Shown here piece after piece: positions 8,821 to 58,050 of a DNA stretch of 58,050 nucleotides. Made by a program: the position numbers and the translations under genes. The stretch spans positions 1 through 58,050 of IMG/VR virus record IMGVR_UViG_3300035670_000246, one strand, 5' to 3'. The stretch is from a virus (Duplodnaviria; Caudoviricetes). The stretch's first letter is position 1. The number at the start of each line of letters is the position of its first letter. The notes under the pieces are model-generated. The model was not told the origin of the DNA. It saw nothing but the letters and a program-made list of their open reading frames with translations, and did no database searches.

Positions 8821-9464
8821 AAGCCCTCATCATCCACACCCCGGACATCGTCGAGATGGCGCGTGAGTGCGCCACCCGCGTGGCTCATTTCACCAACCTC
8901 AGGCCGGAATTGGTCGAGGCGGACAGTCGTTTCACGGCCCACCGGCTCAAGCTGGAGGCGTTCCAGTGGCAAAGCGAGCCTGTGTGGCTGGTTGATGCCG
9001 ACCTGTGGTTCATCGCGCCCTGCGTGCTGCCGGTGCTTTCAGGTCCTGTGATCTACGGCAACCCTGACAACTCCATCCTCAATCGGGAACGCTACGCATT
9101 CACCAAGGTCGAGATCAGTCACGCGTTCAACACGTCCTTGATCGGACTGGACCCGACGTGTCGCGAGGTGCGTGAGGCGCTGGAGGACGCGTCAGCCATG
9201 CAAGCTGAGCGGTACGGCCCTGAACCCGTCGAGGACGAGAAGTTCTTCAACATTGCCGTCTCGCGTCCAGGTCTCACCCTGTGCCGCCTGAGCACGCGTT
9301 TCAACTGGTGCGGCATCGATCCACCGGCCAGCACGGTCGCCGTGCATGCGGCGTCCCGCCGCGACAAGATGGCGTGGCTGCGGGAGGTGGTGGACGATCA
9401 AGCTCTGCCAGCAAGCCCTGGCGGAGCGCAACAACGAAGCGAAGGAGATTCAAGCCATGAGTGA
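8817..9464 (+). CDS. Glycosyltransferase (GT-A fold); current C-terminus supplied by an attC arm
   Basis: LVDADLW (DxD), FNTS, EDEKFFN, VHAAS; paralogous layout to 8104-8820. Confidence 0.7.
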   Translation: MKALIIHTPDIVEMARECATRVAHFTNLRPELVEADSRFTAHRLKLEAFQWQSEPVWLVDADLWFIAPCVLPVLSGPVIYGNPDNSILNRERYAFTKVEISHAFNTSLIGLDPTCREVREALEDASAMQAERYGPEPVEDEKFFNIAVSRPGLTLCRLSTRFNWCGIDPPASTVAVHAASRRDKMAWLREVVDDQALPASPGGAQQRSEGDSSHE

Positions 9465-9517
9465 CATTGATACGACAACAAGCGGGGCGCAGCTTGGCGG
9501 CAGCGTTTTTGTTCGCC
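9389..9517 (-). repeat. attC-like site (terminal, non-canonical R' G|TCCACC)
   Basis: Minus strand GGCGAAC AAAAAC GCTGCCGCCAAGC ... GCTGGCAGAGC TTGATC GTCCACC. Confidence 0.55.
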
Positions 9518-9828
9518 TTGGTCCCGGCTGTGGACTCAGTTACGCCGATCAAGCTAAATCCCTCGGTCTAAGAGTTGGGGACACTATCGTCGGGAAAGAG
9601 CATTACGGCGGCGGATCGTGGAGTGAGGCTGAGCTAACATTGCTGTGGATGGGATCGCAAATCTGCGTCTGGCGGCATCGCTGGCGCAACTCGCGCTTTC
9701 CTAACATCTGGAATGGTGGAGGCGAGGCCGCGAACTGGAGCCTGACCGACCGCGACTGGCATAAGGCGAACGCACAAGGTCTGGCGCAGATGCCAGCGCC
9801 GAAAGACTCCGAATCCATAACCGACTAA
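9457..9828 (+). CDS. Cassette-borne hypothetical protein (Trp-rich)
   Basis: Starts in the loop of attC 9389-9517 and stops in the loop of attC 9765-9866. Confidence 0.65.
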   Translation: MSDIDTTTSGAQLGGSVFVRLGPGCGLSYADQAKSLGLRVGDTIVGKEHYGGGSWSEAELTLLWMGSQICVWRHRWRNSRFPNIWNGGGEAANWSLTDRDWHKANAQGLAQMPAPKDSESITD

Positions 9829-9866
9829 CCCGCTGGCATCTGTTGCCAGCACCGACTTTGTTCGCC
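9765..9866 (-). repeat. attC-like site
   Basis: GGCGAAC ... CTGGCGCAGATGCCAGCG / CGCTGGCATCTGTTGCCAG ... GTTCGCC imperfect palindrome with bulges. Confidence 0.8.
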
Positions 9867-10340
9867 ATGTTGAATGACTCGCTATACAGCTCCGAAAAAA
9901 TGGATTGGGAAACGCCCGATCACCTCTTCCTTGGCCTTGATGCCGAGTTCGCGTTCACGCTCGACGTGGCCGCGAGCAAAGAAAACGCCAAGTGCCGCCG
10001 ATACTTCACGGCGGAGGATGACGGACTGAGCCAACCGTGGGAGGGAACCTGCTGGATGAATCCACCATACGGGCGGGAAGTGGGCGATTGGATGCGCAAA
10101 GCCGTAGAGGAGTCCAAGCGCGGCGTTCTCACCGTGGCCTTGGTGCCAGCACGAACGGATACGCGCTGGTGGCATGAGACGGCGATGAAGCATGAAATCC
10201 GATTCCTCGCACGCCGCCTGTCCTTCAAGGGATCTGGCAACAAGGCTCCTTTCCCGTGTGCCGTCGTGGTGATTCGCCCGCCGCACGCCGCAATCCTTTC
10301 TCTGGCGAACACGGATTATCCCGACCAAAATTCCAGGTAG
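9867..10340 (+). CDS. Phage-type DNA N6-adenine methyltransferase (cassette-borne)
   Basis: WETP, FTLDVAAS..NAKC, DGLSQPW, WMNPPY, LVPARTDTRWW, APFP. Confidence 0.9.
   Translation: MLNDSLYSSEKMDWETPDHLFLGLDAEFAFTLDVAASKENAKCRRYFTAEDDGLSQPWEGTCWMNPPYGREVGDWMRKAVEESKRGVLTVALVPARTDTRWWHETAMKHEIRFLARRLSFKGSGNKAPFPCAVVVIRPPHAAILSLANTDYPDQNSR
10310..10326 (-). other. attI/attG-like cassette target half-site
   Basis: Minus strand GGTCGGGATAATCCGTG|TT; 12/17 identical to 56791-56807. Confidence 0.55.
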
Positions 10341-27401: not shown

Positions 27402-27484
27402 TTTAGTTTGTCCTCCGCGCTGGGTGTGATAAATCAAGCGCAAACCTGAGCACGCTTGCTACCGATTTACGCAAACGACGCCGC

Positions 27485-27617
27485 AGCGAACAAATCGCGG
27501 CAGGATCAACCGCCTTGGCGGTCTGGACTTCGGCGGCTTCTGTCTTCGATGGAGGCGGCATGGTTGACGTGGGGTAATTGTGGTTATTCGGCGGTGCCTG
27601 CGCTTGGGTCGTTCGGC
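27485..27617 (+). repeat. attC-like site
   Basis: AGCGAAC AAATC GCGGCAGGATCAACCGCC ... GGCGGTGCCTGCGC TTGGGTC GTTCGGC. Confidence 0.75.
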
Positions 27618-27829
27618 GTAGCTCGACATGCCTTCCACGAATCCCACCACCAAAAGAGCGGGTCGATCAGCCTGTGAATTGGATCAGTTGAATCATCCAC
27701 GCAGAGCGCAGCCGGACTCACAAACAGCAGCACGATCAGGTATGGAGGTCCTGCGATGAGAAGCAGCGCAAGCAGCCCAACACGCCGAACAAAACGGATG
27801 CAGGCGACGGCTCGAAAAGGATTTGTCAT
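27584..27829 (-). CDS. Cassette-borne small membrane protein
   Basis: Hydrophobic stretch; starts and stops inside flanking attC-like sites; cassette spans 27612-27871. Confidence 0.6.
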   Translation of the reverse strand: MTNPFRAVACIRFVRRVGLLALLLIAGPPYLIVLLFVSPAALCVDDSTDPIHRLIDPLFWWWDSWKACRATPNDPSAGTAE

Positions 27830-27877
27830 GGTGTCGAAAGTTTGTTGCTCGCCGTCGCCTGATCCGAGTCGTTCGGT
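27784..27877 (+). repeat. attC-like site (most canonical example)
   Basis: GCCGAAC AAAA CGGATGCAGGCGACGGC ... GCCGTCGCCTGATCCG AGTC GTTCGGT; single extrahelical G. Confidence 0.85.
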
Positions 27878-42006: not shown

Positions 42007-42008
42007 CC

Positions 42009-43951: not shown

Positions 43952-44197
43952 GATGATCTGCCCCATGCACTCGGCGTAACCGGCGATGTCCACCGGGGTG
44001 TCCAGTTTGTCGCTCGTCTTGCTACGGCTCACCTTCATGAGGATCAGCATCGCCGAGACATCTTTCGCGGTGACTGTGATTCCAAGATAGGCGCTCCAGA
44101 ACGCGGCGATGCGCTCGAACGACTCCACACAGGAACCGTAGTCCTGCTGGCGGTCGCCTGCGACGATCTGTTTGGCGGTGTCAAGGATGGTGGTCAT
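43868..44197 (-). CDS. DUF6378-like (putative nucleotide diphosphatase-related) protein
   Basis: DRQQDYG..FERIA..W..LMKVSR..DIAGYA. Confidence 0.75.
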   Translation of the reverse strand: MTTILDTAKQIVAGDRQQDYGSCVESFERIAAFWSAYLGITVTAKDVSAMLILMKVSRSKTSDKLDTPVDIAGYAECMGQIISHREPDPAPDRRQFAPFAKHTTTFAGA

Positions 44198-44649
44198 GGC
44201 TCTTCTTCAAGGTTTTTGAGGAACTGGGCGCGATACACGGCTTTTTCGCCTTTGGAGAGTTTGCCGTCGCCACCGATCTCGGGGTGCATGATGTCGTTAG
44301 GATCATCCGAGTGCGGGAGGCCGAAAACATGTCCGAACTCATGCACGAGAGTGGCAAACGTGTCTTCGCCACGGCCGAGAAAGCGGTCCCAAAAGGTATC
44401 CCGACGCCAACGTAGAGACGCCTCCAAGCGTATCTGCCATTTGTCCGGACCAATGCGCTGGCATTCGGCGATGCGGGTGGGGTTGCCTTTGGACCTGACA
44501 CCCCACTGGAATGAAATGTGGATGTTGGTTTGATTGCCGGGAGCGAGCGCGATCAGGTCGCGCAGCGTGTCGTTCCAGACGGCTGCCGCCTTTTGCGCGA
44601 CGGAAGCGATTCCGGGCGGGCAGTAGTAGGTGAGGGTCTCTGGGGTCAT
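44194..44649 (-). CDS. Matrixin-like zinc metalloprotease
   Basis: HEFGHVFGLPH metzincin motif with Met-turn IMHP. Confidence 0.85.
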   Translation of the reverse strand: MTPETLTYYCPPGIASVAQKAAAVWNDTLRDLIALAPGNQTNIHISFQWGVRSKGNPTRIAECQRIGPDKWQIRLEASLRWRRDTFWDRFLGRGEDTFATLVHEFGHVFGLPHSDDPNDIMHPEIGGDGKLSKGEKAVYRAQFLKNLEEEP

Positions 44650-46040: not shown

Positions 46041-46354
46041 GGTTTTTGTTTTTGCGGAAAGTCCATACCCTTGAAGGCTTGCTCAACAGATTGTCCTCTT
46101 CTAAATCTAGCCCTCAACGCCAAGTTAGTGATCCCAAGTAACCGAGCCCACTGTGACCTTGTTTTAGTTAGCCCTTGATAGCTGATGTACACGTTGGTGT
46201 CTTTGTTATTGTCGCATCTGCACAGGATCACATGGCCGTGTCGATCCGACGACAACACTTCTAACGCGACCCACCGTCCAAATCTCATACCGGGTGAGTT
46301 TTTCCAGTTGATACGCTCGCGTTTACGCTTCAGGTTTTTGGCAGCCTTATTCAT
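46037..46354 (-). pseudogene. Internally deleted HNH endonuclease remnant
   Basis: Keeps GMRFGRW..LCRCD and ISYQG..QWARLLG ends but lacks the nuclease core seen in 2268-3011. Confidence 0.55.
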
Positions 46355-46447
46355 AGTTTCTGTATGGATGGGTTAAGAGCCGCATCGGGAGTCACGATCC
46401 CCTGCGGCTCTGTCATTGATGCGCATAAAACATCTTCCGTCAATACT

Positions 46448-46897
46448 TCAAAAAGGTTCCGTGTCCGCGTCATCATCTTCGACGGTGTGGTTGCTGATCT
46501 TGGCATCGACAAACCGTTGACGCCGTTCTTCGTTCTCCTTGCGGACATTCTCCTCACAGGTGCAGACCCGCAGGTTGCCACGGATGTAGCCGAGTTCAGT
46601 GTTCTTGCGGTCCACGTGGAGGCAGTAACGCGTGCGCCCTTTGTCGTCCATGTAGCGTGTGGAGCCGATCACATCCATGAAGTCCTCGAAGGTGATGCTG
46701 AAGGCCTTGTGCCTCTTGCGTGCGCTGGCCCGCAGGTTGTCGTAGGCGGCCTTCTCGGGGTTCTTCTGCCGCCAGAGGGCCTTGTAATGGTGCCCGCAGA
46801 GCTGGTGGCTTGTCGGGTGCGTGTCGATGTTACGCGGCGGCTTGCGGCACCAGCGCACACGGCATTTACCAGGGATGGGGGTGGTGCGGAGGTTCAT
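46448..46897 (-). CDS. HNH-like endonuclease with N-terminal Cys/His motif
   Basis: HVDRKN..GYIRGNL..C...N. Confidence 0.65.
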   Translation of the reverse strand: MNLRTTPIPGKCRVRWCRKPPRNIDTHPTSHQLCGHHYKALWRQKNPEKAAYDNLRASARKRHKAFSITFEDFMDVIGSTRYMDDKGRTRYCLHVDRKNTELGYIRGNLRVCTCEENVRKENEERRQRFVDAKISNHTVEDDDADTEPF

Positions 46898-47088
46898 ATC
46901 GCCTTTTTCCGCACTTCCAGCGGAAAGTTAAGCTCCGTGGCCCACTGGCGCAGTTTGTCCATGCCGGTTTTCACACGTTTCTCGGTGATGACAACGCCAT
47001 AGCCAGCCTTGAGCATCTCCCGGGCTTTCCTGAGTTTCTGCTGCCTCACTTCGAGGGGCACCTGTGCGAGTGATTTTTTCGAGATCAT
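46894..47088 (-). CDS. Small hypothetical protein
   Basis: ATGA-coupled at both ends. Confidence 0.55.
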   Translation of the reverse strand: MISKKSLAQVPLEVRQQKLRKAREMLKAGYGVVITEKRVKTGMDKLRQWATELNFPLEVRKKAI

Positions 47089-47594
47089 ACCCAGTCTTCG
47101 GTTTTTAGCGCCTTCATGAAAACGAGCCAGTGGGTTTTAGCGGTTTTCCCACAGCGTTGACCGATGAGCGGACGCTCAGGTGTCAGCGCAAGAATTTGTG
47201 ACACCGGCACGTCATGTTCGTTTCATTTGAAAATCAGCGTTCCTTCAGGCTTGAGCACTCGAAAGCACTCAGCGAATCCACGGCGGATCATCTCGCGCCA
47301 GTCGCCTTCGAGATTCCCGTATTTCTTCGCCAACCAACCTTTCTTACCAGCGCGAACAAGGTGCGGAGGATCGAACACCACCATTGCGAAGTGATCGGAC
47401 GGGAACGGAAGTTCTGTGAAGTCCGCCACAATATCAGGGTTGACTTCAAGCGTGCGGACGCCGCCCGGGCTGCCCACGTCTCGCAAAGCATGAGTCTCGC
47501 GGCGTTTGTCCACGAACACGGCGCGGCTGTCCTGCCTGTTGAACCAGAACATTCGAGAGCCACAACATACATCGAGCACGCGAGCGGCATTCAT
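47085..47594 (-). pseudogene. Methyltransferase interrupted by an in-frame TGA
   Basis: LDVCCGSRMFW, FDPPH; GTLIFK*NE at 47223-47225; frame continues THWLVFMK to TGA at 47085. Confidence 0.8.
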
Positions 47595-47875
47595 GGTTTT
47601 GAGGGTAGCCTGTCCACGAATTGCTTGCCACCTTCCACCGAGTCCGTCCATTCCGCGTGGCACCCTTGTTCTTTGAGCCTGCGCAGCGTGTCAGCCTGCA
47701 ATGGTGTCGGCTTGTTGCCCGGGCGTTTGAGTTCCAGGAATCCAACTTTACCACCGGGGGCGATGATGATGCGGTCAGGGACGCTGCGGTTGTTGGGCGA
47801 CGTGAACTTGAAGACGAGGCAACCTCGTTGCTTCGCGTAGTCGCACACTTTCTTTTCAATGTGTTTTTCGAGCAT
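47591..47875 (-). CDS. VRR-NUC nuclease
   Basis: EKHIE..KFTSP..VPDR..FLELKRPG..LQ. Confidence 0.9.
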   Translation of the reverse strand: MLEKHIEKKVCDYAKQRGCLVFKFTSPNNRSVPDRIIIAPGGKVGFLELKRPGNKPTPLQADTLRRLKEQGCHAEWTDSVEGGKQFVDRLPSKP

Positions 47876-47878
47876 AGG

Positions 47879-49975
47879 TTAGTCCTTCAAATAGTATGGC
47901 ACCACCCCGCCTTTCGCCTTCACGGGCATGCCGTCCGCCCACGCGGGCAGGGTGGTAAGGTGCCGGTTGAGTTCGTCGATCACTTGCCCGGGCTTGAGGT
48001 AGCCGAGCCACTCGTCGTGAACCAGCGTGGCGGTCTCGTAGCCTGCCTTCTCGGCGTTCAAGCAGCCGATGCACATCACGTCGGTGGCGATGGCCTGAAC
48101 TTGATTCTCGACGGCGGAGCCGGGGGTCAGTTCGACGCGGGTGGAACTGGCCTTCGATTTTGTGCTGGTCTTGTATCCTTCAAACGTCAACGCCGCTTCC
48201 TTGTACCATGCCTTCGGGTCCACCTTTTGAGCGTGGCTTATTTCGTCGTCGGTGGGTGAGAAGACCTTGAAGAACTTGCCCTTCTCGGACCACTGCAACA
48301 CCGGCTCGATCTTGCAGTGAGGGTAGGCGAGGTTACGCCCGCTCGGCAACTTGCAGAACAGAAACTGGATGCCCGCCACCTTCATGCTGAAGTAACACAC
48401 GTCGTGGCGCACGTTGAACTTCCCACCGGGGTTCCTCACAGCGGCCTCGGCCTGCCGGATGGACCGCCACCAGTAGTTCACGATGTTCGGGTTGGCGTCC
48501 CTCCACTTGGAAACGATGTCGGGAAGCTCGTCTTTCTTGAGGCCCATCTTCAAAGCCCCCATGACTTCGAGAGCGCCCGTGCCCCCCTGAAACTGCAATG
48601 CAAGCTCACTTATCTTCGCTTTTTGCCGGAGATGTTTGGTGACTTCCTCTAGTGGGACCTTGAACATTTCAGAGGCGCTGGACTCGTAAATCTTGCCGTG
48701 AGTGCGGAACACCTCAAGCCTCCATTCTTCCTCAGCCAAGTGAGACATGACCACGGCCTCGATTGCCGTGTAGTCGGAGTTGAGCATCGGACCCGCTGGA
48801 TCGTGGATGAAGTGCCGGATGCACGATCCCACGGCTTCGATGACCGGACCGTACATCAGTTCGATCTCATCACGTGACGCACGGGCGCAGATCAGGTCGT
48901 AGATGTCCTTGGTGTGGGCCTCCAGGTGCGCCGAGGGCTTCTTCATGTTCTGCGGCTGGACCAACCGGCCCGCAAAGCGTCCCGTGCGGACAGCGCCGTA
49001 GTACATCAGGGTGCCCCGCACGCGCCCGTCATCACAGACCGTGTCCAGGATCGACGGCAGCTTCGCCACAGAAGAGAACGACACCTGTTTCTTGAGCGTC
49101 AGGGCGCGGCCGGTCGGCGTGCTGTCGTCGAACGTCTCAGCCTGAAGCGCCTCATCCACCGTGGCGGCACGCATGTTTTTGATCGGTGCCCCGTTGGCGC
49201 GGAGCCACTCGATGAACTTGTCACGTTGCGTCGGGTTCAGCCCGGTGATCCGCGTGAACTCCTCGTTGATCGCCGCCGTGGCTTCCTGCACCAATTGGTC
49301 GGCGTAACGCACGGCCTCGACGTTCACAGGCAGGCCACGTGTGTTGATGGCGATCTCCATCTGGAACGTGTCCAAGGCAAAACCCTTCAACTCAAAAGCC
49401 CTCAAAGCCGAGTGAATTTCCTGCTCGACGCGGTCGTCCTGGCGACAGTACTCACAGAACTTCTTGAACTCGGCTCCGTTGTGTTTGGGTTCGTTGAATT
49501 TCCCACTCTTCTTGTCGGGAATGGACAACAGGTTGATCAGACGCCAGCCGCTGTTGTCCTTCTGCTGGCGCAGCCCGAGCGCGGCGGCACAGTCCTTCAG
49601 TGAAAAAGGCAGGCCTGCACGTCTCGCCATGGCTGCGGTGCAGCGCCAGCGGCGGTGGTCGATGCCCTTTCCGAACAGCTTCGACAGCACGTACATCGTG
49701 ACCGCGTGCTCGAACTGGGCGTTGTGGGCATAGACAGGCTCCTCGTTGTCCAGCATCTCGCGCATCAGCGCGTCGGCACCAGGGTCGCTCTTGACTGTCA
49801 CACCCCACTCATCGGTGAAGTGAAACTTGGGGTTCACCCAAAGCAGAGGCTGCCCGTTGTCCTTCGCCACGGCTGCGCAGAAAATCTCCGTCGAAGCGTC
49901 TGCGGCGTATCGAAAAGCCCCGACCGTCTTGATGTCGGCACGGGATCGGGTTTCGTAGTCCAGATGGTATGGCAT
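47879..49975 (-). CDS. Family A DNA polymerase
   Basis: Exo LDYET, AHNAQFE, YCRQD; RTGRF; motif A DYTAIE; motif B RQKAKISEL; motif C VHDE. Confidence 0.92.
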   Translation of the reverse strand: MPYHLDYETRSRADIKTVGAFRYAADASTEIFCAAVAKDNGQPLLWVNPKFHFTDEWGVTVKSDPGADALMREMLDNEEPVYAHNAQFEHAVTMYVLSKLFGKGIDHRRWRCTAAMARRAGLPFSLKDCAAALGLRQQKDNSGWRLINLLSIPDKKSGKFNEPKHNGAEFKKFCEYCRQDDRVEQEIHSALRAFELKGFALDTFQMEIAINTRGLPVNVEAVRYADQLVQEATAAINEEFTRITGLNPTQRDKFIEWLRANGAPIKNMRAATVDEALQAETFDDSTPTGRALTLKKQVSFSSVAKLPSILDTVCDDGRVRGTLMYYGAVRTGRFAGRLVQPQNMKKPSAHLEAHTKDIYDLICARASRDEIELMYGPVIEAVGSCIRHFIHDPAGPMLNSDYTAIEAVVMSHLAEEEWRLEVFRTHGKIYESSASEMFKVPLEEVTKHLRQKAKISELALQFQGGTGALEVMGALKMGLKKDELPDIVSKWRDANPNIVNYWWRSIRQAEAAVRNPGGKFNVRHDVCYFSMKVAGIQFLFCKLPSGRNLAYPHCKIEPVLQWSEKGKFFKVFSPTDDEISHAQKVDPKAWYKEAALTFEGYKTSTKSKASSTRVELTPGSAVENQVQAIATDVMCIGCLNAEKAGYETATLVHDEWLGYLKPGQVIDELNRHLTTLPAWADGMPVKAKGGVVPYYLKD

Positions 49976-50110
49976 GTTTATCGGGAGGTGGTGATAGCGG
50001 GTGGATTTGAACCACCACTGCACGCGGTATCCTTTCGGCTGGTTGTACAGGGAAACAGGCTCATGAGGCCTGCGCGTCTTTACATTTCGCCACGCTATCA
50101 TTTTGAGGGG

Positions 50111-50239
50111 TTGCCTGCCGCCGCAAGAGTGGTGCCGTTACTGCGTCACCGGGTCAGCCCCGTGCTCTCTTGCGCTTGTCGGTTGCGTTGGATTTATGGG
50201 CACCAACATCGCTTCGGCCAGCACAGGCACGGCAGGCAA
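50111..50239 (-). ncRNA. Candidate multi-stem structured element between SSB and PolA
   Basis: 10-bp closing stem TTGCCTGCCG/CGGCAGGCAA with nested CGCAAGAG/CTCTTGCG and GTTGG/CCAAC. Confidence 0.45.
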
Positions 50240-50245
50240 AGTTGT

Positions 50246-50890
50246 TCAGATGTCGTCGTTGGAAGGCGACAGGTCGTCCTCGTCACCGAGGCCAGCGAAC
50301 TCCTTGTCAGCGTCCACCGGACCGGCACCAAACGCCTCGCCGTCCTTGTCGAACATCACCGCTCGCAGCTCGGCGCAGACGCGTTTGCCGAAGTCGTTGT
50401 CCATCGGCCACAGGCGAACGGACGCGTTCACGTAACAGCCGCTGTACGGACTCTCGGAGGTGCCCGGGCCGACATCGACACGCTTGCGGTTGACCACCTT
50501 GGGCTTGCGGTCGGCCTTGGCGCTGGAACTGATGAACATCACGTCGGGGCCGTAGCCATCCTTGCCGTCGAGGTCCTCGCCGTCACGGAAACAGATGCCA
50601 CTGAGCACCACGGTGCCGCTGTCACCCTGTTGCAGAACTTCGTTGGTGCCTTTGACTTTGACGGTTTTGCCTTTCCACTTGTCCATCCCGGACACGACGC
50701 GCCGGATGGCCTGCTTGATGATCTTCACCTGCGGGTCGTCCTTGCGCAGGATGAAGTTGGCGGAGTAGGACTCCTTGCTGCTGCCGTCGTCACCTTTGTT
50801 GGTGCGCGGCTTGTAGATGCTTTCGTAGCTGAGGCGGACGCCTTTGAGCACGACGATGTTCTGGTCCTGCGGTTTCTTCTGGTCACTCAT
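50246..50890 (-). CDS. ssDNA-binding protein (DUF2815-like)
   Basis: VRLSY, FRDG, YSGCYVNA, DGEAFG; acidic tail. Confidence 0.85.
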   Translation of the reverse strand: MSDQKKPQDQNIVVLKGVRLSYESIYKPRTNKGDDGSSKESYSANFILRKDDPQVKIIKQAIRRVVSGMDKWKGKTVKVKGTNEVLQQGDSGTVVLSGICFRDGEDLDGKDGYGPDVMFISSSAKADRKPKVVNRKRVDVGPGTSESPYSGCYVNASVRLWPMDNDFGKRVCAELRAVMFDKDGEAFGAGPVDADKEFAGLGDEDDLSPSNDDI

Positions 50891-50954
50891 GGTGTTGTCT
50901 GGTTTCTCGGTTTCTCGGTTTCGACGCCCCGGGGTGGAGCGTTCGGAAAGTGTT

Positions 50955-52166
50955 TCACACAAACTCGTCGGTGTCAACCATATCATCGAAATCTTTCGAC
51001 GCGTCATCGACGTGCGCGGGACGTGGATCGTTCTCGGGCACCACGATGGGTGAGCCGGGTGGCTTGACCATGAGCTGGTTCATCTCGATGATCTTCGGAC
51101 CCTTCTTGCCTTTGGTCGCCTTCTCGGCCTGGGCTGGCGAGATGATGTCCACGGAGTGAATCTCATCCCACGAGAGGCCCAACCCGGTGAGCACCTTCTC
51201 AGCGGCGGACTCGTCCGTCCAGCGACGGTGCCCACCCTTGGACAGCACGACCTTGAGGCCCTTCATCGGTTTGCCGGACAGCGCCATGCCCTGCACGTGT
51301 TCACGGATCACCTTGATGAGTTCCTCAACCTTGTCGAGGGTCGGGTATAGCTCCGCCAGCCGGTCGTTGCTGAATGACGTGATCTCCGGCACCTCTGCCT
51401 GTTGCGTGAACGTGGGAACAATCTCGTCGAAGTCGCTCAGCATGGAGCGGTTGTACGCCTCGCACTTGGCCTGGGCACGGCAGAACTTGCAGATTTTCTC
51501 ACTGGCTTTGAACACCAGCGTCGGGGCCTCACCCAGAATGTCCTTGGCCGCCTGGGTCACGTAACGGTCGGTGAACTCGCGCAACTCTTTCCACGTGACG
51601 CTCCACGTCACTGTTTCGTTAGGCAGGCGAGGCTGGAAGATGGTCATGGTGACCTTGGTGTCGTCTCGTGCCTCCCAGAGGACCGGGTCAATGAGGCCGG
51701 ACTCAATCAGGCTGCGGGCATAGATCGCCATCTGGCGGTTCTCGGTGGACTCAACCTCACCGTAGCCGAACTTGTAGTCCACCAGATGCAGTCCGCGACG
51801 ATTGATGCACCAGAAATCCACGGTCCCTTTCTCAGTGGGCAGGTAGTAAAGAGGGATACGCGACTCGATGCCGACAGCAACAATCTGGCTCTTGTGCCCC
51901 ATGACCTCGGTGCAGAAGTCGTGGTAACCGCGTCCATGCTCCAGCATTTCCCGGGTGGCGTTTGCCGGGGGCCTTTCACCCTTGAGCATCGCCTCACAGA
52001 CGGAGTGGGCCAGGGTGCCTTCAATGGCAGCCTTGCCAACACGTTCGGGAGGAAGTTCTCCTGCGGCGTCGAGCTGGCGGATGTATCCGAGGGCGGCTGT
52101 GCATTCGGTCCAGGTGTGGGCTTTGGACGGCGAAAGACGTGAGTGGGCTGGGGCGGAATCGGTCAT
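50955..52166 (-). CDS. DUF2800 Cas4-like nuclease
   Basis: HSRLSPS..W..C, EGTLAH, GTVD, VDYKFG, QMAIYA, CKFC...C. Confidence 0.85.
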   Translation of the reverse strand: MTDSAPAHSRLSPSKAHTWTECTAALGYIRQLDAAGELPPERVGKAAIEGTLAHSVCEAMLKGERPPANATREMLEHGRGYHDFCTEVMGHKSQIVAVGIESRIPLYYLPTEKGTVDFWCINRRGLHLVDYKFGYGEVESTENRQMAIYARSLIESGLIDPVLWEARDDTKVTMTIFQPRLPNETVTWSVTWKELREFTDRYVTQAAKDILGEAPTLVFKASEKICKFCRAQAKCEAYNRSMLSDFDEIVPTFTQQAEVPEITSFSNDRLAELYPTLDKVEELIKVIREHVQGMALSGKPMKGLKVVLSKGGHRRWTDESAAEKVLTGLGLSWDEIHSVDIISPAQAEKATKGKKGPKIIEMNQLMVKPPGSPIVVPENDPRPAHVDDASKDFDDMVDTDEFV

Positions 52167-52180
52167 ACCTTAAAACCTCG

Positions 52181-52543
52181 TTATCCGAGTCCCAAGAGTC
52201 GGCGCTCGTAAGGGCTGAGTTTTTCCAACGCTGCTTGCCGGTCAGCCTTGGATTTTTGAGACTGCATTTCTGCCTCCAATCGTTTTGCGTCTGCCTCCTG
52301 GTGGTCCCGCCACCACATCTGCATTTCCAGACTGTACTTCGTCACGTCCTCGTTTTGAAGTTTTGCGCACAGCTCTGAAACAAGGGAGTCTCCGTCCAGT
52401 CCTTTGTTGTACACCGCAGGATGGTACCCCCGCCAGTGCTCTCTGTTTATGGGTTTTCCTCGGAGTTCGTCAAGAAGGCAAGCCACTTGTGAAAGGGCTA
52501 TTTCTTTTCCTGAAGCGTCCATGTAGTCTGAGTTGCAGGGCAT
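52181..52543 (-). CDS. Hypothetical protein
   Basis: MPC..., WWRDHQEAD, ALEKLSPYERRLLGL. Confidence 0.7.
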   Translation of the reverse strand: MPCNSDYMDASGKEIALSQVACLLDELRGKPINREHWRGYHPAVYNKGLDGDSLVSELCAKLQNEDVTKYSLEMQMWWRDHQEADAKRLEAEMQSQKSKADRQAALEKLSPYERRLLGLG

Positions 52544-52560
52544 ATCGTTAGTAGAGATGT

Positions 52561-52589
52561 GGCCCCACGGCATCGGCTGCCGTGGGGCC
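52561..52589. terminator. Perfect 12-bp hairpin
   Basis: GGCCCCACGGCA-TCGGC-TGCCGTGGGGCC. Confidence 0.6.
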
Positions 52590-52597
52590 GGGGTTGA

Positions 52598-53341
52598 TCA
52601 GATGTCGTCAGATTCCTTTTTGCGCGTGTCGGTCGCGCCGAGCTTCTGAAGACCTTTCAGGAGGGCCGGATAGTACTGAGGGTCACACTCAGCCGTGGAC
52701 GGGGCACTGCCGCATTTGTCCTTGAGGAACTTCTTGATACGCTCGCGCTTTTCCTGGGCGTCCGGCATGGACCGGATGGACTCCACGTGGGCCTTGATGT
52801 CCTCGAATGTGATGCCGTGATCTGCGGGAGAAGCAGGAGCGGCGGTAGCGGCGGGGGCAGCGGGGGTTTCTGGGGCAGCGGGGGACGCTGCGGGAGGCTC
52901 AGCGGAAGTTTCGTCAACCTCGGTGGTTGCTGGTTCCACGGCGGGTTCGCCCACCGGAGCAGAGGCCTTGGGTTTCTTTTTGGGCGCGGGCTCGGGGGTC
53001 TGCGCGGGTGCTGTCGGCACCGGGACGTTGCCAAGAGCCGTAGCGAGGCTGTTGATGGCGGCGACGATGGGGTCGATGAGTTCGGCACGAATGGCCTTGA
53101 GGAGTTCAGTCATGGTGTTGTTCGTTGTGTGTTTGTGGTTTTCTACTGGAGGCGTGATGTCTCCGTCGAAAGTGATGGGCAGCCCTTGTCGCACGCACCC
53201 ACGTGCGTGGTCAAGCAAGGGTTGCAGGTCAGGGTTCTGGCAGGCGAGATGTTCCAGCGAATCTCGTTCCCGCTCATCGTGCAAGGTGGTGCCGTGCCAG
53301 TTGTGGCGTTGGAGCCAGTATTTGTAGCGATCAGCGGTCAT
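52598..53341 (-). CDS. Hypothetical Pro/Ala-rich replication-module protein (likely internal start at 53113)
   Basis: ATGA-coupled to the primase; second plausible ATG after AACAACACC. Confidence 0.6.
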   Translation of the reverse strand: MTADRYKYWLQRHNWHGTTLHDERERDSLEHLACQNPDLQPLLDHARGCVRQGLPITFDGDITPPVENHKHTTNNTMTELLKAIRAELIDPIVAAINSLATALGNVPVPTAPAQTPEPAPKKKPKASAPVGEPAVEPATTEVDETSAEPPAASPAAPETPAAPAATAAPASPADHGITFEDIKAHVESIRSMPDAQEKRERIKKFLKDKCGSAPSTAECDPQYYPALLKGLQKLGATDTRKKESDDI

Positions 53342-55968
53342 ACCCATTCCTCCTCACCAAGGCTCGCACGTTGTCGCAGAACGTCAAGTGGTTTGTCAGT
53401 TTTTAGTAGGTCTTTGCGCACCCATACCTGTTGGCGTGCCCCGGCGATGACGGGTCTGCCTTCGAGCCTGGAGAACCCCGCGTCGTGCAGCACGGTGGAG
53501 AGGTACTGCGGGTTGACGTGCTGCATGCCCTCCATCTGCAACTGTGTCACCAGCGGGCCTGCGCACAAGATGTCCTGACGCACCAGCGGGTTGTCGCCGT
53601 CCTCCCAGATCATGCGCAGGAAGCTCATCAGCTCGTTGCTGGTGTCCTCGACCATCTCGTGCAGATACTTGGTGACCGGGGCCTGCCCGTTGCTGCTGAA
53701 CGCATCGGAGATCGTGCGGTTCTCCAGGTAGTGGCGCAGGCCTCCTTGCAGACAGTCGAACATGTACACCAGATTGGTGAAGTAGTCGGGGTTGCGGCGG
53801 GTGAGTTCCTCGACCTGCGCCTTTTTCTGCAACGCGCTCTTGAGCACGAAGTAGCGGCGGCTCTCCTCGGTGACCGCGAGGGCGTCATGGTAGTTGGAAA
53901 ACACCATGTAGTTGGTCACGTTGCGACGGGTGACCGTGGCCTTGTTACGTTCGTTGATGGCGATGTAGTCGTTCGAGATGGGCTCCTTGAGGATGTTCAT
54001 CAGGTCGTGCCTGTTGGTGCCTGCCACGCGGATTTCCTCGATGGCGATGAACTGGCTGCCTACAGCCCACTCTGTCCACCCTTTCTTGATCGTCGAGTTG
54101 TTGATGATGCGGGCGTTGTCGTTGCCCAGCACGGCACGCATGACTTGCGCGAGAATGGTCTTGCCGCAACCTTCAGCTCCTTGCAGAAACAAAGCCCACC
54201 TGATCTTGAGGCCCGGGTGCTGCACGTTGAACGCCATCCAGTCGAGCACGACCCGGCGATACTCTGGTTCTGCGATCAGGTTGCACAGGTGGTCGAGCAG
54301 CGTGTCCTCCGCCTGCGCGGCCTGATCCTTGTCTGCGGTCTTGTAGCTGCGGCGGTAAGTGTTGACGAAGATGCGCCGGTCACGTTCGTACACAATCTCC
54401 TCCGGCTCGGAGGGGTCGTAGTCATAGTCGTCCACCGTGGGGCATTTCAGGTGGTTGAGCACAAACTTCGACGGCAGGAAGATCGGCGTGTTCAGCGTGG
54501 CCTGATTGACCTCCTTGTCCGCCTTCATGAGATCCTCGGCAGTCGGCAGAAGTTCGCGGCTGTACACGTTGTCAAACTCCGGGATGCCGTAGAACTGCCG
54601 CGTGGCCTGCCGGAAGAACCGGTTGTCAGCCACCACGTAAACCAGACCCCGCCCCCACTTCGGAGTGACCACGTCGATGTCCTTGCTCTTCTGCTGGTTG
54701 ATGAACTCGCGGTGGCGCTTCAAGTCCTTGCGCAAGGCCTGGATCGTCGGTTTCGATCCGAAGCGTTCACGTGAGGCCTGCATCAATGTTTGCAGCAGCG
54801 AGTCCTCCTCGGCGTGGTTGAGCAACGGGGCGGCGGCGGCGATGCGCTTGACCCCTTCCCCGATGAGCTGGGTGTAGGTCGAGCACTCAAACATCATCCA
54901 CTTGCTGACCGTCTGATAGCTCTCCTCCTTGATCTTGCTGCCGTCCCAGCCGTGCTCGTTGGCACGTTTGAGCAAGGTGCGGATAGTGACCGGGGCGCGG
55001 CCCTTCGGCTGGTCGGTGATCGACTTCCACTTGGCCGCCGTGTCCGCCTTGCCGATGTATTTTGCCCCGGTCGCGGACCACTTGTCAAAGAGCTGGTAAG
55101 CCTCGAACTCCTGGTCCTCGAACTGATGCCTCAGCGCCATTGCCACGTCGAGCCACTCGGCATAGGAGCAATCCGAAGAAAGCACGTCAATCGCCTCCTC
55201 CGCAATCTCCAGCGTGATGCCCGGGATGGGGGACTGGTAGAAACGCAGGAAGTCCTCGACCGAGTCGCCTGCGCCCCGGGGGCGCGTGGCGTCCTTGCGG
55301 GTGCCGCTGACCATGCCCGGCAGCGTGTCGAGGTCCTTGGCGATGTCGTCCTCAGTGAAGGCACACCCTTCTGTGAGCGAGGTGACCAGCATGGGGTGGT
55401 CAAGGTCCGGGTCCTGCCCCGCGAACATCGTGGGACGGAACATCGGCTGCACTGCCACCACCGACTCACGGGTGACGTGTGTCAGCCCGAGCTTCTGCGC
55501 CAGCGTGAGCACCGCATCCGGGTATTTTTCCACCGGGATGGCGTCAGCCTCCACCATGACCCGCAGACGCGGCTTCTCAGGCCGGTGGCTGGCGGTTGTC
55601 CAGACGGCAAAGTTGAACCGCCCCAGACGGTCCCGCAAAACGGAGGGGTCAGCGACGAAGGGAGCCGCAGGACAGGTGCCGTCCGGCAGCTCGTCGATGT
55701 CGAGGAAGAGCAGGTTGCACTCCCCGGCATGCTCCAGCTTTCGACCTTCGGTCCACGGTGACTCCGGGAAGGTGGCAGCCACCACGTAGCTTACCCGCTT
55801 GGCCTCGTCACGTTCGCGTTTGGTCTCCAACGCCCAGAACTCGTCATACGTGATCGACAAAGGCACCGGCATGTCCATGACCTGCTTGACCAGCGCCACG
55901 AAGGTGCGGGCGTCGGCTAGCTTGAGGGTCCTGGACTCGACAGACTGACCGGTGAAGTAGCGGGGCAT
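53338..55968 (-). CDS. Primase-helicase (AEP-like, PriCT-2-like, P-loop)
   Basis: LDID, TTASH..PRLR; YAEWLDVAMAL..FDKWS; GAEGCGKT, IEEI, FSN. Confidence 0.88.
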   Translation of the reverse strand: MPRYFTGQSVESRTLKLADARTFVALVKQVMDMPVPLSITYDEFWALETKRERDEAKRVSYVVAATFPESPWTEGRKLEHAGECNLLFLDIDELPDGTCPAAPFVADPSVLRDRLGRFNFAVWTTASHRPEKPRLRVMVEADAIPVEKYPDAVLTLAQKLGLTHVTRESVVAVQPMFRPTMFAGQDPDLDHPMLVTSLTEGCAFTEDDIAKDLDTLPGMVSGTRKDATRPRGAGDSVEDFLRFYQSPIPGITLEIAEEAIDVLSSDCSYAEWLDVAMALRHQFEDQEFEAYQLFDKWSATGAKYIGKADTAAKWKSITDQPKGRAPVTIRTLLKRANEHGWDGSKIKEESYQTVSKWMMFECSTYTQLIGEGVKRIAAAAPLLNHAEEDSLLQTLMQASRERFGSKPTIQALRKDLKRHREFINQQKSKDIDVVTPKWGRGLVYVVADNRFFRQATRQFYGIPEFDNVYSRELLPTAEDLMKADKEVNQATLNTPIFLPSKFVLNHLKCPTVDDYDYDPSEPEEIVYERDRRIFVNTYRRSYKTADKDQAAQAEDTLLDHLCNLIAEPEYRRVVLDWMAFNVQHPGLKIRWALFLQGAEGCGKTILAQVMRAVLGNDNARIINNSTIKKGWTEWAVGSQFIAIEEIRVAGTNRHDLMNILKEPISNDYIAINERNKATVTRRNVTNYMVFSNYHDALAVTEESRRYFVLKSALQKKAQVEELTRRNPDYFTNLVYMFDCLQGGLRHYLENRTISDAFSSNGQAPVTKYLHEMVEDTSNELMSFLRMIWEDGDNPLVRQDILCAGPLVTQLQMEGMQHVNPQYLSTVLHDAGFSRLEGRPVIAGARQQVWVRKDLLKTDKPLDVLRQRASLGEEEWV

Positions 55969-55974
55969 AAAAAG

Positions 55975-56166
55975 TCAGAGGAGCTCAGTGAGTTTGATTT
56001 TCAGCGCGTCCGCCAGTTTGCGCAGCGTCTGGACGCACGGGTTGGTCTGCGACCCCGTTTCGATCATGGAGATGGTCCCGACTGACACGCCCGCACGGAC
56101 GCTCAGCTCAGGGATGGTGAGACCTGCGTCCGTGCGGGCCTTCAGGAGTCTGGCACCTGTGGTCAC
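55975..56166 (-). CDS. XRE/Cro-like HTH regulator
   Basis: GLTIPELSVRAGVSVGTISMIETG..NP..TLRKLADAL. Confidence 0.85.
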   Translation of the reverse strand: MTTGARLLKARTDAGLTIPELSVRAGVSVGTISMIETGSQTNPCVQTLRKLADALKIKLTELL

Positions 56167-56324
56167 GGCCTCGTCTTGCGGTGTTGCTCGGCTGCGAGGT
56201 CGTAGCCCTGTTTGTAGCCTCGGCGGTAGGCCCGTGCCTTCTCCTCAAGCTCGTAGCGCCGGTAGGCCGAGTACAAGATGAGGGCGATGCCTAGGCCGCA
56301 GATGAATCCGATGGTGAAGTCCAT
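56163..56324 (-). CDS. Small membrane protein (53 aa, not in ORF track)
   Basis: MDFTIGFICGLGIALILYS..AYRRGYKQG; stop overlaps the HTH gene start. Confidence 0.6.
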   Translation of the reverse strand: MDFTIGFICGLGIALILYSAYRRYELEEKARAYRRGYKQGYDLAAEQHRKTRP

Positions 56325-56377
56325 GTTGGTTTTTCAGTATATTGAAAGGACGGGCAAAAGGTCAAAGGTTGTTTTCA

Positions 56378-56755
56378 TCAAACGAAATCCTCTTCGACTT
56401 CCGGCTCTTGAACTGCTGGCGGCTGCGACGGCACGGCCCCCGGCTGGCGGTTATGAAACGAGAACGCCACGTAGCCGTGATCCGTGACCCACTCGCACAG
56501 CGCGACCGAGTAGGCTGCGGTCAGCGTGCCAATCGCCTTCAGCGCCACGGTGTAGGGGATGGTGCAAATGAAGACGTACTCCAGGTCGTCCGGATTGCCG
56601 AAGTTGCGCAGGGTGAGCTGCGGCAGCAAGGCGTGAACTTTTTCCGCGTCGCCCAGGAACGCCGTGAGGCCGTCGCCCTCCGTCAGGAGGCAGATGTCGG
56701 CTCTTGGGCAGCAGGACCGCAGGGAGGCGTGTTTGCGTTGGATAAGGGATGTCAT
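56378..56755 (-). CDS. Hypothetical protein
   Basis: 125-aa ORF. Confidence 0.55.
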   Translation of the reverse strand: MTSLIQRKHASLRSCCPRADICLLTEGDGLTAFLGDAEKVHALLPQLTLRNFGNPDDLEYVFICTIPYTVALKAIGTLTAAYSVALCEWVTDHGYVAFSFHNRQPGAVPSQPPAVQEPEVEEDFV

Positions 56756-56790
56756 TGGTTTTAGAAAAGCAAGTTGCTATGCTAACCGCT

Positions 56791-56807
56791 GGTCAGCAGA
56801 ATCGGAG
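56791..56807 (+). other. attI/attG-like cassette target half-site
   Basis: GGTCAGCAGAATCGGAG|TT, similar to 10310-10326. Confidence 0.55.
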
Positions 56808-56813
56808 TTCGGG

Positions 56814-57077
56814 CTACCATCCGCCACATTGCCATTCGAGAGCTTCGGCAGAAATTGTGTGAGGGTGTCCGCTGTCCGGCTCGCCGGGGAAAATATGGAT
56901 GCAGCAGCCAGTGCCCTCTCCAGAGATAAATCCCTCGGCGTGTGCCCAGCCTCCGCCGCGGGCAATGTCCAAGGCGTCTTCGAGTGCTTTAGCTGCCTTA
57001 TCCAGCTTCGCCTGCACGCGAGACCGAACACGGCGCGGCAGATCAACCGCTCGTAGGCTATCAGTCGTGTTTTTCAT
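56814..57077 (-). CDS. Cassette-borne hypothetical protein
   Basis: Starts in an attC loop; N-terminus AVDLPRRVR encoded by the attC arm. Confidence 0.65.
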   Translation of the reverse strand: MKNTTDSLRAVDLPRRVRSRVQAKLDKAAKALEDALDIARGGGWAHAEGFISGEGTGCCIHIFPGEPDSGHPHTISAEALEWQCGGW

Positions 57078-57116
57078 TGCGTGTTCCTCGCGGTGTCTGC
57101 GCTTGAGGCGTTCTGC
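57023..57116 (+). repeat. attC-like site
   Basis: ACCGAAC ACGGC GCGGCAGATCAACCGC ... GCGGTGTCTGCGC TTGAGGC GTTCTGC. Confidence 0.8.
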
Positions 57117-57535
57117 GACTCGCGAGAGTCAGTCGTGATTCGCGGCATTACGGAAAGGTCCACTTTACATCCGTGCTCCATGTAGAGGTTCCACGCCATT
57201 CTACCATGAGGTTTGAGCGCGCAGTCGAACGGTCCGCGAGGATCGCCTATTCTCTCATGCTCGCCTTTCACCATCTGGTCGATATCCTTTTCAGTCGCCC
57301 AGCTTGCACAATCACGTTTGAGCAGTCCTCGGTAATCCACGGCTCCGATATGCCGCAGCAGATCTTGCATCAGCTTCTCAGGCTCGCAGGCATTTTCCGT
57401 CCACGGCACGGCGATCAAATCGCAGTCAGTGGTTACTGTGCCGTGGATTGCAAGCGCGTAGCCGTTGGCGCGAGCTGTATCACACAGCGCAGCGTATAGG
57501 CAGGCAAAGAATGGTGCGTGAGTCGAAGGTTTCAT
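57074..57535 (-). CDS. Cassette-borne hypothetical protein (nucleotidyltransferase-like motif)
   Basis: GYALAIHGT..DCDLIAVPW..KPHGR..VDLSV. Confidence 0.7.
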   Translation of the reverse strand: MKPSTHAPFFACLYAALCDTARANGYALAIHGTVTTDCDLIAVPWTENACEPEKLMQDLLRHIGAVDYRGLLKRDCASWATEKDIDQMVKGEHERIGDPRGPFDCALKPHGRMAWNLYMEHGCKVDLSVMPRITTDSRESQNASSADTARNTQ

Positions 57536-57834
57536 GATCGTGAGTTTTGGGCAACCGTCGCAGAACCAGCGGCTGGAGGATCAACCTCGCTAAGGCTCGG
57601 TGCCTCAGCCTTTTTGTTCGCGTATTCATCAATTTCAGCTTTCAGTTCTCTGCGGGTTCTGGCGCTAAAGTCAGCTTCTCCCGTCTTGAGATTTTCCGCC
57701 TGCCACCAAACGCAACGGTCGGGCGGATAGTAGCCGTGATTAACGAGCCGGTATCCACGATAAAGCCTCCCGCGAACCAGTCGCTCGACCGCAACGGAGT
57801 CCCGTTGCTCGTCTGTTGTGGATTCGTTAGCCAT
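57532..57834 (-). CDS. Cassette-borne hypothetical protein
   Basis: Starts in an attC loop and reads through the whole of attC 57560-57622. Confidence 0.65.
   Translation of the reverse strand: MANESTTDEQRDSVAVERLVRGRLYRGYRLVNHGYYPPDRCVWWQAENLKTGEADFSARTRRELKAEIDEYANKKAEAPSLSEVDPPAAGSATVAQNSRS
57560..57622 (+). repeat. attC-like site (short)
   Basis: GCAGAAC CAGC GGCTGGAGGATCAACC ... GGTGCCTCAGCC TTTTT GTTCGCG. Confidence 0.75.
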
Positions 57835-57869
57835 TGGTCGGGCCTCCGTGGGTCAGCTTGTCGTTCACA
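57771..57869 (+). repeat. attC-like site
   Basis: CGCGAAC CAGTC GCTCGACCGCAACGGAG ... CTCCGTGGGTCAGC TTGTC GTTCACA. Confidence 0.8.
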
Positions 57870-58050
57870 CCCACAGGTCGTCCACCTTGATGCCGTTGTC
57901 GGCTGGTTGCGCGGGGCGCGTTTTGCGTCTCTTCATGCGCCGGACTTTGTAACCCTTCTCAACCATGATGGCGCGTGCCCAGTTGACGTGGCAGCCCATG
58001 GCCTTCGCGTTCTCGATGGCGGACTTGCGGATGTCACACTTGCTGCGGTC

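Follow-up and report, generated by a model that had tools for sequence, protein, structure and literature searches.

The IMG/VR virus record IMGVR_UViG_3300035670_000246, analysed here over its whole linear length of 58,050 nt and referred to as the window (record G000; estimated completeness 91%), carries close to its right end three open reading frames (ORFs) of 100, 153 and 87 amino acids, which stand in tandem on the minus strand and are joined by 4-nt ATGA overlaps at 57532-57535 and 57074-57077. The second overlap falls within W3, a site spanning the junction between the 153-aa and 87-aa genes, which resembles the attC recombination sites of integron cassettes in its succession of AAC box, bubble, imperfect stem, loop and GTT box (Table 1). 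The W3 loop begins with a Shine-Dalgarno motif, GAGGAA (57089-57084), and ATGA lies 6 nt further on; the 5' arm encodes the tail of the 153-aa protein (SQN/ASSADT) and the 3' arm the N-terminus of the 87-aa protein (AVDLPRRVR). A sequence-only reading of the window had located this stop/start overlap inside an attC-like loop, which the ORF map and the site anatomy confirm, and had named eight terminal peptides encoded by the arms of such sites, all of which are present where it placed them.

W3 is homologous to two other sites in the window, W2 and W5, with compensatory changes in paired bases, and similar sites occur in three clusters, at 57.9-56.8, 27.9-27.4 and 9.4-10.4 kb. We lean towards the view that these clusters are integron-type cassette arrays lying within phage operons, with their cargo genes inverted. 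As W3 by itself is not above chance, the case for cassettes rests on comparison, both between phage genomes and within single populations.

A unit that moves as a block

Cassette units travel as whole blocks, both among unrelated phages and inside a single population, and they break at AAC. The clearest case is the 153-aa gene, relatives of which are encoded on two IMG/VR contigs and seven metagenome contigs. When positions 40000-58050 of the window were compared with the 57-kb record G001, the sole DNA match was 57110-57620, and the remaining window shares with G001 just patches of less than 150 nt inside a giant ORF. Unit boundaries were compared in a ten-sequence alignment containing six close copies, viz. 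those of the window and of loci L001, L002, L005, L006 and L007. The six close copies have six unrelated upstream sequences, each diverging just 5' of one AAC, and on the downstream side there are five context classes (the window; L001; L002; L005 and L006, with L007 similar to them; and L008), with divergence directly after the second AAC. L005 and L006 illustrate this most directly, being 99.9% identical across 1047 nt from the left boundary and unrelated upstream of it. Common ends in unrelated contexts indicate a discrete unit of ~510 nt that has been inserted into unrelated phage genomes, among them L001, where its neighbours are the genes for a GpA-type terminase large subunit on one side and a lambda-family portal protein on the other. 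The travelling block consists of the 5' hairpin followed by the gene, and the downstream hairpin is left behind, as is seen for both the 153-aa and the 100-aa units. Units also occur together, with three in a row behind a collagen-like gene in L007 and one additional unit upstream in L005. Three more distant copies (L009-L011, with 70-77% protein identity) lack these unit ends.

Twenty sequencing runs contain all or part of 56500-58050, and the contigs of runs X3-X6 were compared with the window. In X3, an 879-nt contig (depth 39) is present beside the window path (depth ~150) and joins 57621 to 57861 via 819 other letters, an alternative allele that replaces the W1 hairpin and the 100-aa ORF and keeps W2. 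Runs X5 and X6, from two other studies, yield contigs that match 56500-56809/56811 and 57863/57866-58050 and are then unlike the window, and their breaks at 56809/56811, 57553, 57619, 57773 and 57863-57867 are all at boxes. A 279-nt contig from X5 retains only 57553-57619, i.e. site W2, between unlike flanks, and two copies of the W1 site, at a distance of 340 nt, stand on one X5 contig. Two kinds of piece end lie off the boxes, one within the W1 loop (57825) and the short X6 contigs from 57832; all others are at boxes. Stretches that X5 and X6 do not cover, and runs X7-X20, in which the share of the sequence is small, do not count here towards absence or habitat.

Gene shuffling of this kind could in principle occur without a dedicated recombinase, the junction hairpins being regulatory or linker motifs and the exchange proceeding by homologous or microhomology recombination, driven by the DUF2800 nuclease, an Enc34-type single-strand DNA-binding protein (SSB) or host RecA. 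The model for such a process would be the promoter/stem-loop cassettes (PeSL) of T4-type phages, for which exchange with mini-circles is documented (PMC2839356). The phage does encode DUF2800 and an Enc34-type SSB, W2, W3 and W5 are alike in both halves and would make exchange substrates, and no site-specific recombinase was found in the four phage records. However, the context breaks (six on the left, five on the right) and the ends in X3, X5 and X6 lie at AAC and nowhere else in the shared 50-120 nt, the piece ends at 57825 and 57832 excepted, and under such a scheme the cassette-specific complementarity of the boxes would have no role and the one-sided bulges with their 6-pair spacing would be left unexplained (see below). 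The sites also fall outside the definition of PeSL, since they have neither a sigma-70 promoter nor an intrinsic terminator: the three arrays contain a single promoter-like sequence (56365-56336), which is outside any site and no more than shuffled sequences give, and of the terminator-like hits none coincides with a site apart from a weak one in the 3' arm of W5. We regard exchange by homology alone as unlikely.

The 153-aa protein belongs to a large family (237 hits) of hypothetical phage proteins of ~125-145 aa, and among GenBank phages 16 records contain distant homologues, all of them annotated as hypothetical. The structural model (predicted local distance difference test score 90.6) weakly resembles pol-beta-type nucleotidyltransferases (Foldseek E 0.008-0.03, TM 0.34-0.42); as these matches are weak (best E 0.008), the product is described only tentatively as nucleotidyltransferase-like. 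Elsewhere the search for relatives returned less. The 20-mer of the W2 leader is present only in two contigs already in the set, a degenerate pattern for the W2/W5 3' half matched one further record, and no relatives of the 87-aa or 123-aa ORFs were found in viral contigs. Relatives of the Dam-type methyltransferase of the 9.4-kb array are at most 66% identical, too distant to map unit ends. Backbone relatives identified via the primase gene are 24-42% identical, and five loci around distant backbone relatives (~59 kb) have no consensus-like site.

Site geometry, cognate boxes and polarity

Eleven sites were selected as AAC...GTT pairs for a comparison of geometry, and their AAC positions coincide with the independently mapped breaks. 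All 11 have an AAC in one arm of the R box paired with GTT, and in all 11 the L box is separated from the R box, with spacers of 1-7 nt per side and stems of 12-21 pairs. Loops measure 3-75 nt and whole sites 48-125 nt; the overall length of attC sites is ~57-141 bp. Bulged bases are concentrated on the 3' arm, opposite the AAC (32, versus 6 on the 5' arm), and a bulged T lies exactly 6 pairs past the first bulge in W1, W3, W5, W6 and L001_S5 (five of 11 sites) and 5 pairs past it in W2 and L005_up. In the account of Nivina et al. (2016; PMC5027507), attC recombination takes place between A and C in the AAC triplet, the extrahelical bases of the recombinogenic bottom strand lie on the arm opposite the AAC, and the distal one of these bases is a conserved T, with a 6-bp stem between the first and last extrahelical base. 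In the phage sites, it is the gene-sense strand that is built like this bottom strand, one of its arms bearing the AAC that is cut and the opposite arm the bulges.

The two boxes of a unit are cognate. Beyond GTT, the 11 units have 4, 7, 3, 6, 5, 6, 0, 9, 6, 8 and 7 contiguous complementary bases (mean 5.5), whereas 104 non-cognate box pairings average 1.2 and never exceed 4; the unit scoring zero is the L007 copy of the 153-aa unit, in which one base is changed and six matches then follow. The 10-base box of W2 (57566-57557) and 57119-57110 are exact inverse complements, and in locus L068, part of record G003 (length 40,961 nt, completeness 100%), the boxes of one unit are complementary at 9/9 positions. 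Homology among W2, W3, W5 and L007_S3 covers the two halves of the site, with at least four compensatory pair changes, which were read by eye, MAFFT being unable to align the variable-length loops.

Strongly paired AAC...GTT sites number three in the window versus 0.11 +/- 0.31 in shuffled sequence, and sites with a cognate distal box three versus 0.24 +/- 0.52; by either measure none of 200 shuffles reaches three. The folds of W1, W2, W4, W6 and the second L068 site consist of an R stem, a bubble and an L stem. W2 folds with a z of -2.2 (5 of 200 shuffles), and with flanks W4 folds at -27.4 and W6 at -26.6 kcal/mol, with an R stem, a bubble and a long L stem. The site following the L068 unit has a fold z of -5.2, and another L068 site lies 1.7 kb further.

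Taken together, the breaks at the 5' AAC and the side of the bulges make the gene-sense strand the equivalent of the attC bottom strand. Bulge side gives this polarity at 10 of the 11 sites, including W1-W6 (L007_S4 is ambiguous), and actual breaks give it for two units, so the proposal in the sequence-only reading that the cargo ORFs are antisense to attC is borne out by both lines of evidence. In bacterial cassettes, insertion of the bottom strand orients the ORF with the promoter Pc (PMC5027507). The standard layout, a top-strand ORF with attC 3' of it, is not what is found here, where the hairpin is 5' of the gene.

Reading frames across the junctions

In most cassette ORFs the start codon lies within the site's own loop or a little way past it, the AAC at the unit's end is translated as asparagine, and the frame closes in the loop of the unit that follows. 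This reading of AAC, followed by continuation into the next site, is seen in 10 of 11 distinct cassette-type ORFs, with the in-frame tripeptides YAN, SQN, TPN, KAN, LAN, NEN, AQN, HAN, KPN and VPN; the exception is the 87-aa ORF, which has its own TAG 4 nt earlier. By our arithmetic, 10 of 11 has p ~1e-4 under a one-in-three expectation. At five of 16 distinct junctions (W2 in all six copies, W3, W4, L007_S3 and L005_up) the first stop in the AAC frame overlaps the next ATG as ATGA. W1, the loop of which contains GGAGG (57847-57843) and an ATG (57834-57832), has an 8-nt overlap, and at the other ten junctions the next ATG is 8-63 nt downstream. ATGA-type 4-base overlaps are ordinary in this genome, occurring in 20 of 61 co-oriented adjacent gene pairs on a heuristic gene map. 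The ATGA is present at W4 and L005_up though no ORF reads into them, and it therefore belongs to the cassette and not to its present neighbour; the same W2 TGA terminates four different upstream ORFs. The combined pattern of in-frame AAC and ATGA supports the suggestion that the recombination site doubles as a translational-coupling linker, and from it we infer the coupling of ribosomes itself.

In the 153-aa frame the variable columns at the three codon positions number 24, 16 and 94 of 142 each, a distribution which indicates that this minus-strand frame is under purifying selection. The 87-aa ORF has three homologues, conserved from VDLPRxVR, which is encoded by the 3' arm, to the C-terminus and variable in the loop-encoded first 9-19 residues. 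The first 25 residues of the 52-aa ORF are homologous to those of a 104-aa ORF of L068 and the rest is unrelated. This stretch of ~25 leading residues, shared between 27403-27561 of the window and 82-396 of L068, is encoded by the W5-type loop and 3' arm, and in both ORFs it is a site-encoded N-terminal leader joined to different cargo.

The codon-usage score per residue is lower for cassette ORFs than for the backbone genes near them, e.g. 15-25 for those of 87-153 aa versus 45 for the 125-aa gene at 56378-56755, which is consistent with a foreign origin. Both ORFs of the second array (27.4-27.9 kb) are under the gene-calling threshold.

Table 1. Coordinates of the sites, units and reading frames in the three arrays of the window (minus-strand parts of W3 are given in gene orientation).
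Feature	Position	Strand	Remarks
Upstream ORF, 3' part	57865..58050	-	runs off the window; TGA 57867-57865 overlaps the W1 AAC
Site W1	57775..57865	-	AAC 57865-57863; GTT 57777-57775; 3'-arm bulges g, c, t, a
100-aa ORF	57532..57834	-	start in W1 loop; AAC 57618-57616 read as Asn; TGA overlaps next ATG
100-aa segment (W1 hairpin and ORF body)	57622..57860	-	swapped for 819 other letters in the minority X3 contig
153-aa unit, 511-nt module	57110..57620	-	87-94% DNA identity to L001, L002, L005, L006, L007
Site W2 (153-aa unit)	57557..57618	-	AAC 57618-57616; GTT 57566-57564; 3'-arm bulges
153-aa ORF	57074..57535	-	without its own stop codon within the unit
Site W3	57020..57119	-	boxes reach out to 57119 and 57020
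W3 AAC	57112-57110	-
W3 7-nt spacer	57109-57103	-
W3 13-nt 5' arm	57102-57090	-
W3 39-nt loop	57089-57051	-
W3 16-nt 3' arm	57050-57035	-	three bulged bases (c, a, t)
W3 5-nt spacer	57034-57030	-
W3 GTT	57029-57027	-
ATGA overlap	57074..57077	-	in W3 loop
87-aa ORF	56814..57077	-	own TAG 4 nt before the distal box
87-aa unit, distal AAC	56807..56809	-	X5 and X6 contigs diverge there
Site W4	27788..27873	-	boxes 9/10 complementary; ATG 27829 in loop; AAC-frame stop overlaps it as ATGA
81-aa ORF	27584..27829	-	AAC 27613-27611 in frame (TPN); ends within W5 loop
Site W5	27489..27613	-	75-nt loop; 3' half recurs in G003 (L068) with different cargo
52-aa ORF	27403..27561	-	start in W5 loop
123-aa ORF	9457..9828	+	boxes at 9511 and 9762-9771 9/10 complementary; AAC 9769-9771 in frame (KAN)
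Site W6	9769..9862	+	21 pairs; 3'-arm bulges c and t six pairs apart; between 123-aa ORF and Dam gene
Dam-type N6-adenine methyltransferase ORF	9867..10340	+	boxes at 9860 and 10301-10310

Among the other proteins of the window are PolA, a PriCT_2/DUF5906 primase-helicase, an SNF2 helicase, a radical-SAM protein and several methyltransferases, in addition to the DUF2800 protein and Enc34-type SSB already mentioned. Modification genes are dense at 27913-32493 (-), 9867-10923 (+) and 47223-47651 (-), and comprise the radical-SAM protein, at least five proteins with S-adenosylmethionine-dependent methyltransferase domains, the Dam-type methylase, a weak match to glycosyltransferase 2 and a ferritin-like protein. 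The second array abuts such a cluster, and DNA methyltransferases adjoin or sit in arrays both in the window (the Dam gene) and in L002, where an N6_N4_Mtase gene (3781-4473) is located just downstream of the unit. A single ORF of 3452 aa, to which no family was assigned, occupies 13954-24312 (+); its relative in G001 has 42% identity over 339 residues, with short DNA patches 72-85% identical. At the end of this giant ORF, 24287-24312 (+) has the 10-base 5' half-site consensus of W1 and an ATGA overlap to the next gene, with no hairpin, no GTT box and the AAC out of frame, and may be a decayed half-site or chance; the consensus-like 5' halves at 24287, 41976 and 44565 were all set aside for want of a hairpin. 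Four copies of a 36-nt tandem unit, two of them perfect, are found at 7786-7916 and a perfect 39-nt duplication at 25467-25544, each in or beside coding sequence.

Weighing the cassette reading and its place among known systems

A number of results count against an integron-type origin of these arrays, beginning with the statistics of the sites. The DNA fold of W3 over 57023-57116 is no better than chance in comparison with shuffles (z +0.35 and +0.91), as are 141-nt folds around it (z +0.37 and +0.18), the repeat search reported no inverted repeat at W3, and the folds of W5 and of the first L068 site are no better than those of shuffles. Canonical RYYYAAC...GTTRRRY pairs number 6 in the window versus 7.1 +/- 4.0 in 100 shuffles, with none in the three arrays. 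The recurring TTGTTCG motif (as TTGTTCGS) to which the sequence-only reading drew attention is found 7 times versus 6.07 expected and so does not exceed chance, and counts of other short consensus motifs are likewise at chance. A site count at a weak threshold, 10 versus 6.9, was equalled in 45 of 200 shuffles, and a first structural descriptor, with 11 sites versus 8.5 +/- 3.3, was barely above shuffles and was replaced by stem scoring and the cognate-box criterion. An initial scan for box-pair 'triples' gave 116 matches and was dropped as too permissive. Rfam and tRNA scans gave no matches, and there was no hit to an attC family in Rfam. Results such as the W3 fold, the canonical motifs and the weak-threshold descriptor, along with the commonness of ATGA overlaps in this genome, are what would be seen if these were ordinary, tightly packed and overlapping phage genes with imperfect palindromes arising by chance. 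That explanation is contradicted by the 511-nt module with identical ends in unrelated phages and by the X3 replacement allele, as well as by the cognate boxes, the enrichment of strong sites and the 10 of 11 in-frame AAC triplets, and is in our estimation very improbable indeed.

The sites also depart from typical attC sites in detail. None of the 11 proximal boxes has the GTTRRRY consensus, with C at position 4 in 10 of 11, and the first bulge is mostly C rather than the usual G. GTTRRRY is treated here as typical and not as defining, since only the AAC triplet is conserved among all attC sites according to PMC5027507. The enzymatic side is similarly bare, with no match to the integron integrase (TIGR02249) in G000 and no Phage_integrase (PF00589), Y1 transposase (PF01797) or resolvase domain in G000-G003, the estimated completeness of which is 91, 63, 20 and 100%, respectively; positive controls for these three Pfam searches gave matches in 14, 6 and 12 of 14 genomes. 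A complete integron, with intI, attI and Pc beside the array, is thus not present, and the arrays are at most comparable to CALINs, i.e. clusters of attC sites without an integrase. No protein family is common to the window, G001 and G003.

It might be supposed from this that a different hairpin-specific system acts in trans, such as a single-strand recombinase, a transposase or a novel phage or host enzyme, and that the likeness to attC is convergent. The GTTC core in place of GTTRRRY at 10 of 11 sites, the first bulge of C and not G, and the polarity of the cargo, which is opposite to that of integron cassettes, would all fit such a system, as would the lack of any 153-aa relative in 185,579 species genomes, a result obtained by a pattern scan of limited sensitivity. 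Y1 transposases and resolvases were, however, not found in the four records, and there is one hairpin per unit and not two subterminal ones. The side and spacing of the bulges match the rules for integrase binding, and complementary boxes are what would be expected if one hairpin site were rebuilt on a circle, the way integrons work. We judge a separate hairpin system to be decidedly improbable.

The remaining points against the integron-type reading concern the extent of the comparison. Break points are defined by comparison for two units only, those of the 153-aa and 100-aa ORFs. The population data come from assembled contigs, which give no frequencies and may hide rarer forms, and runs X1-X4 belong to one study that may be the window's own source. 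The edges of the arrays are incomplete: the Dam gene and the 87-aa unit both lack a full site behind them, and at the left edge of the 9.4-kb array (~9430-9513) the site that precedes the 123-aa ORF is weak. In G003, a W5-type 3' half heads different cargo, with divergence right after the proximal box, which is usual in homogeneous attC families yet is not predicted by a strict rule that the hairpin moves with its gene.

On the integron-type reading which we favour, each unit runs in gene orientation, after the AAC, through a spacer, an imperfect stem with bulges on its 3' arm and a variable loop, a spacer, a GTT box and the ORF, to an inverse box ending in AAC. When such a unit is circularised its two boxes would pair, giving a complete attC-like hairpin with R box, unpaired spacer, L box, extrahelical bases and variable loop. 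The enzyme at work would then be a host tyrosine recombinase of the integron type, acting in trans on the gene-sense strand in its folded form, as for attC clusters that lack an integrase; as no recombinase is encoded in the phage records, a host enzyme is the simplest reading. The fixed reading phase would allow any cassette to be placed before any other without polar effects, the site acting as a translational coupler. The interpretation offered in the sequence-only reading is supported, each of its parts having passed a test which it could have failed.

Phage attC sites have been reported recently, as rare, conventionally oriented clusters (PMC9892861). In that study, Qi et al. (2023) described 17 CALINs in phages, including virulent ones, with five methyltransferase cassettes among them, and found that IntI1 recombined five of the six phage attC sites tested. 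The arrays of the window share with integron cassettes and CALINs the R box with AAC/GTT, the unpaired spacers, the L box, the one-sided extrahelical bases with a distal T ~6 pairs off, the variable loop, the break at AAC, the inverse box complementary to the start of its own unit and the tandem arrangement, and with CALINs in particular the lack of a nearby integrase and the presence of a DNA methyltransferase among the cargo. They differ in that the cargo ORF is on the bottom-strand side with the site 5' of the gene, that the core is GTTC instead of GTTRRRY with a first bulge mostly of C, and that the ORFs cross the crossover in a fixed phase, starting in their own loop and stopping in that of a neighbour. 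They are also located within phage operons, e.g. between terminase and portal genes, whereas integron arrays stand behind attI and Pc.

Other known systems resemble them in part. In class 1 integrons, the short frame of ORF-11 at attI1 runs across the point of recombination and ends at an in-phase stop supplied by the core of the neighbouring cassette, by which the next gene is translationally coupled, as described in PMC8876359; there a single fixed leader peptide is concerned, whereas here every junction would be, with cargo proteins crossing it. The PeSL of T4-type phages described by Arbiol et al. (2010; PMC2839356), likewise involve small accessory genes flanked by repeated stem-loops, modular shuffling and co-oriented neighbours, and depend on homology exchange around a sigma-70 promoter and a terminator; the present sites have neither signal, break at one triplet and have a box pair of their own for each unit. 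A parallel for the entry of cassettes into non-integron DNA is the attG route, by which an integrase (IntI) acting in trans inserts them, either way round, at minimal GWT sites of the genome (Loot et al., preprint 10.1101/2022.09.11.507474). The demonstration of this route used canonical cassettes and the E. coli chromosome; most of the phage junctions have full hairpins on either side. An element of the IS200/IS605 type needs two subterminal hairpins and a Y1 (HUH) transposase, unlike the single hairpin per unit and the lack of a PF01797 match in G000-G003.

A further possibility, of which we are doubtful, is that these units form a distinct, phage-borne and phase-locked class of cassettes. 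The 5' site of such a cassette would bring the ribosome-binding site and start codon of its own gene and give the upstream gene its tail and stop, the crossover always being an in-frame Asn, so that the unit would behave like an exon and fit any phage operon without polar effects. The pool would circulate among unrelated phages of lytic type, and its recombinase may be non-classical.

The literature search brought up the phage CALIN paper, reviews and the attG preprint. Cassettes that are antisense and in frame were not found described in this search, the scope of which did not include the supplementary tables of PMC9892861, where orientations might be listed; for the inverted polarity of the cargo and the reading-frame rule across the crossover no prior description was found. 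Comparison of the sequences documents the movement of cassettes, both from one phage genome to unrelated ones and inside one population. If the integron-type reading is true, it would provide a concrete mechanism for single-gene mosaicism in phages, and would explain how accessory genes, such as those for the Dam methylase and the nucleotidyltransferase-like protein, enter essential operons without disrupting them. Integron-type recombination would extend to a pool of cassettes which bacterial integrons would express backwards, and viruses could trade genes without breaking their operons, with protein synthesis running in frame over the joints.

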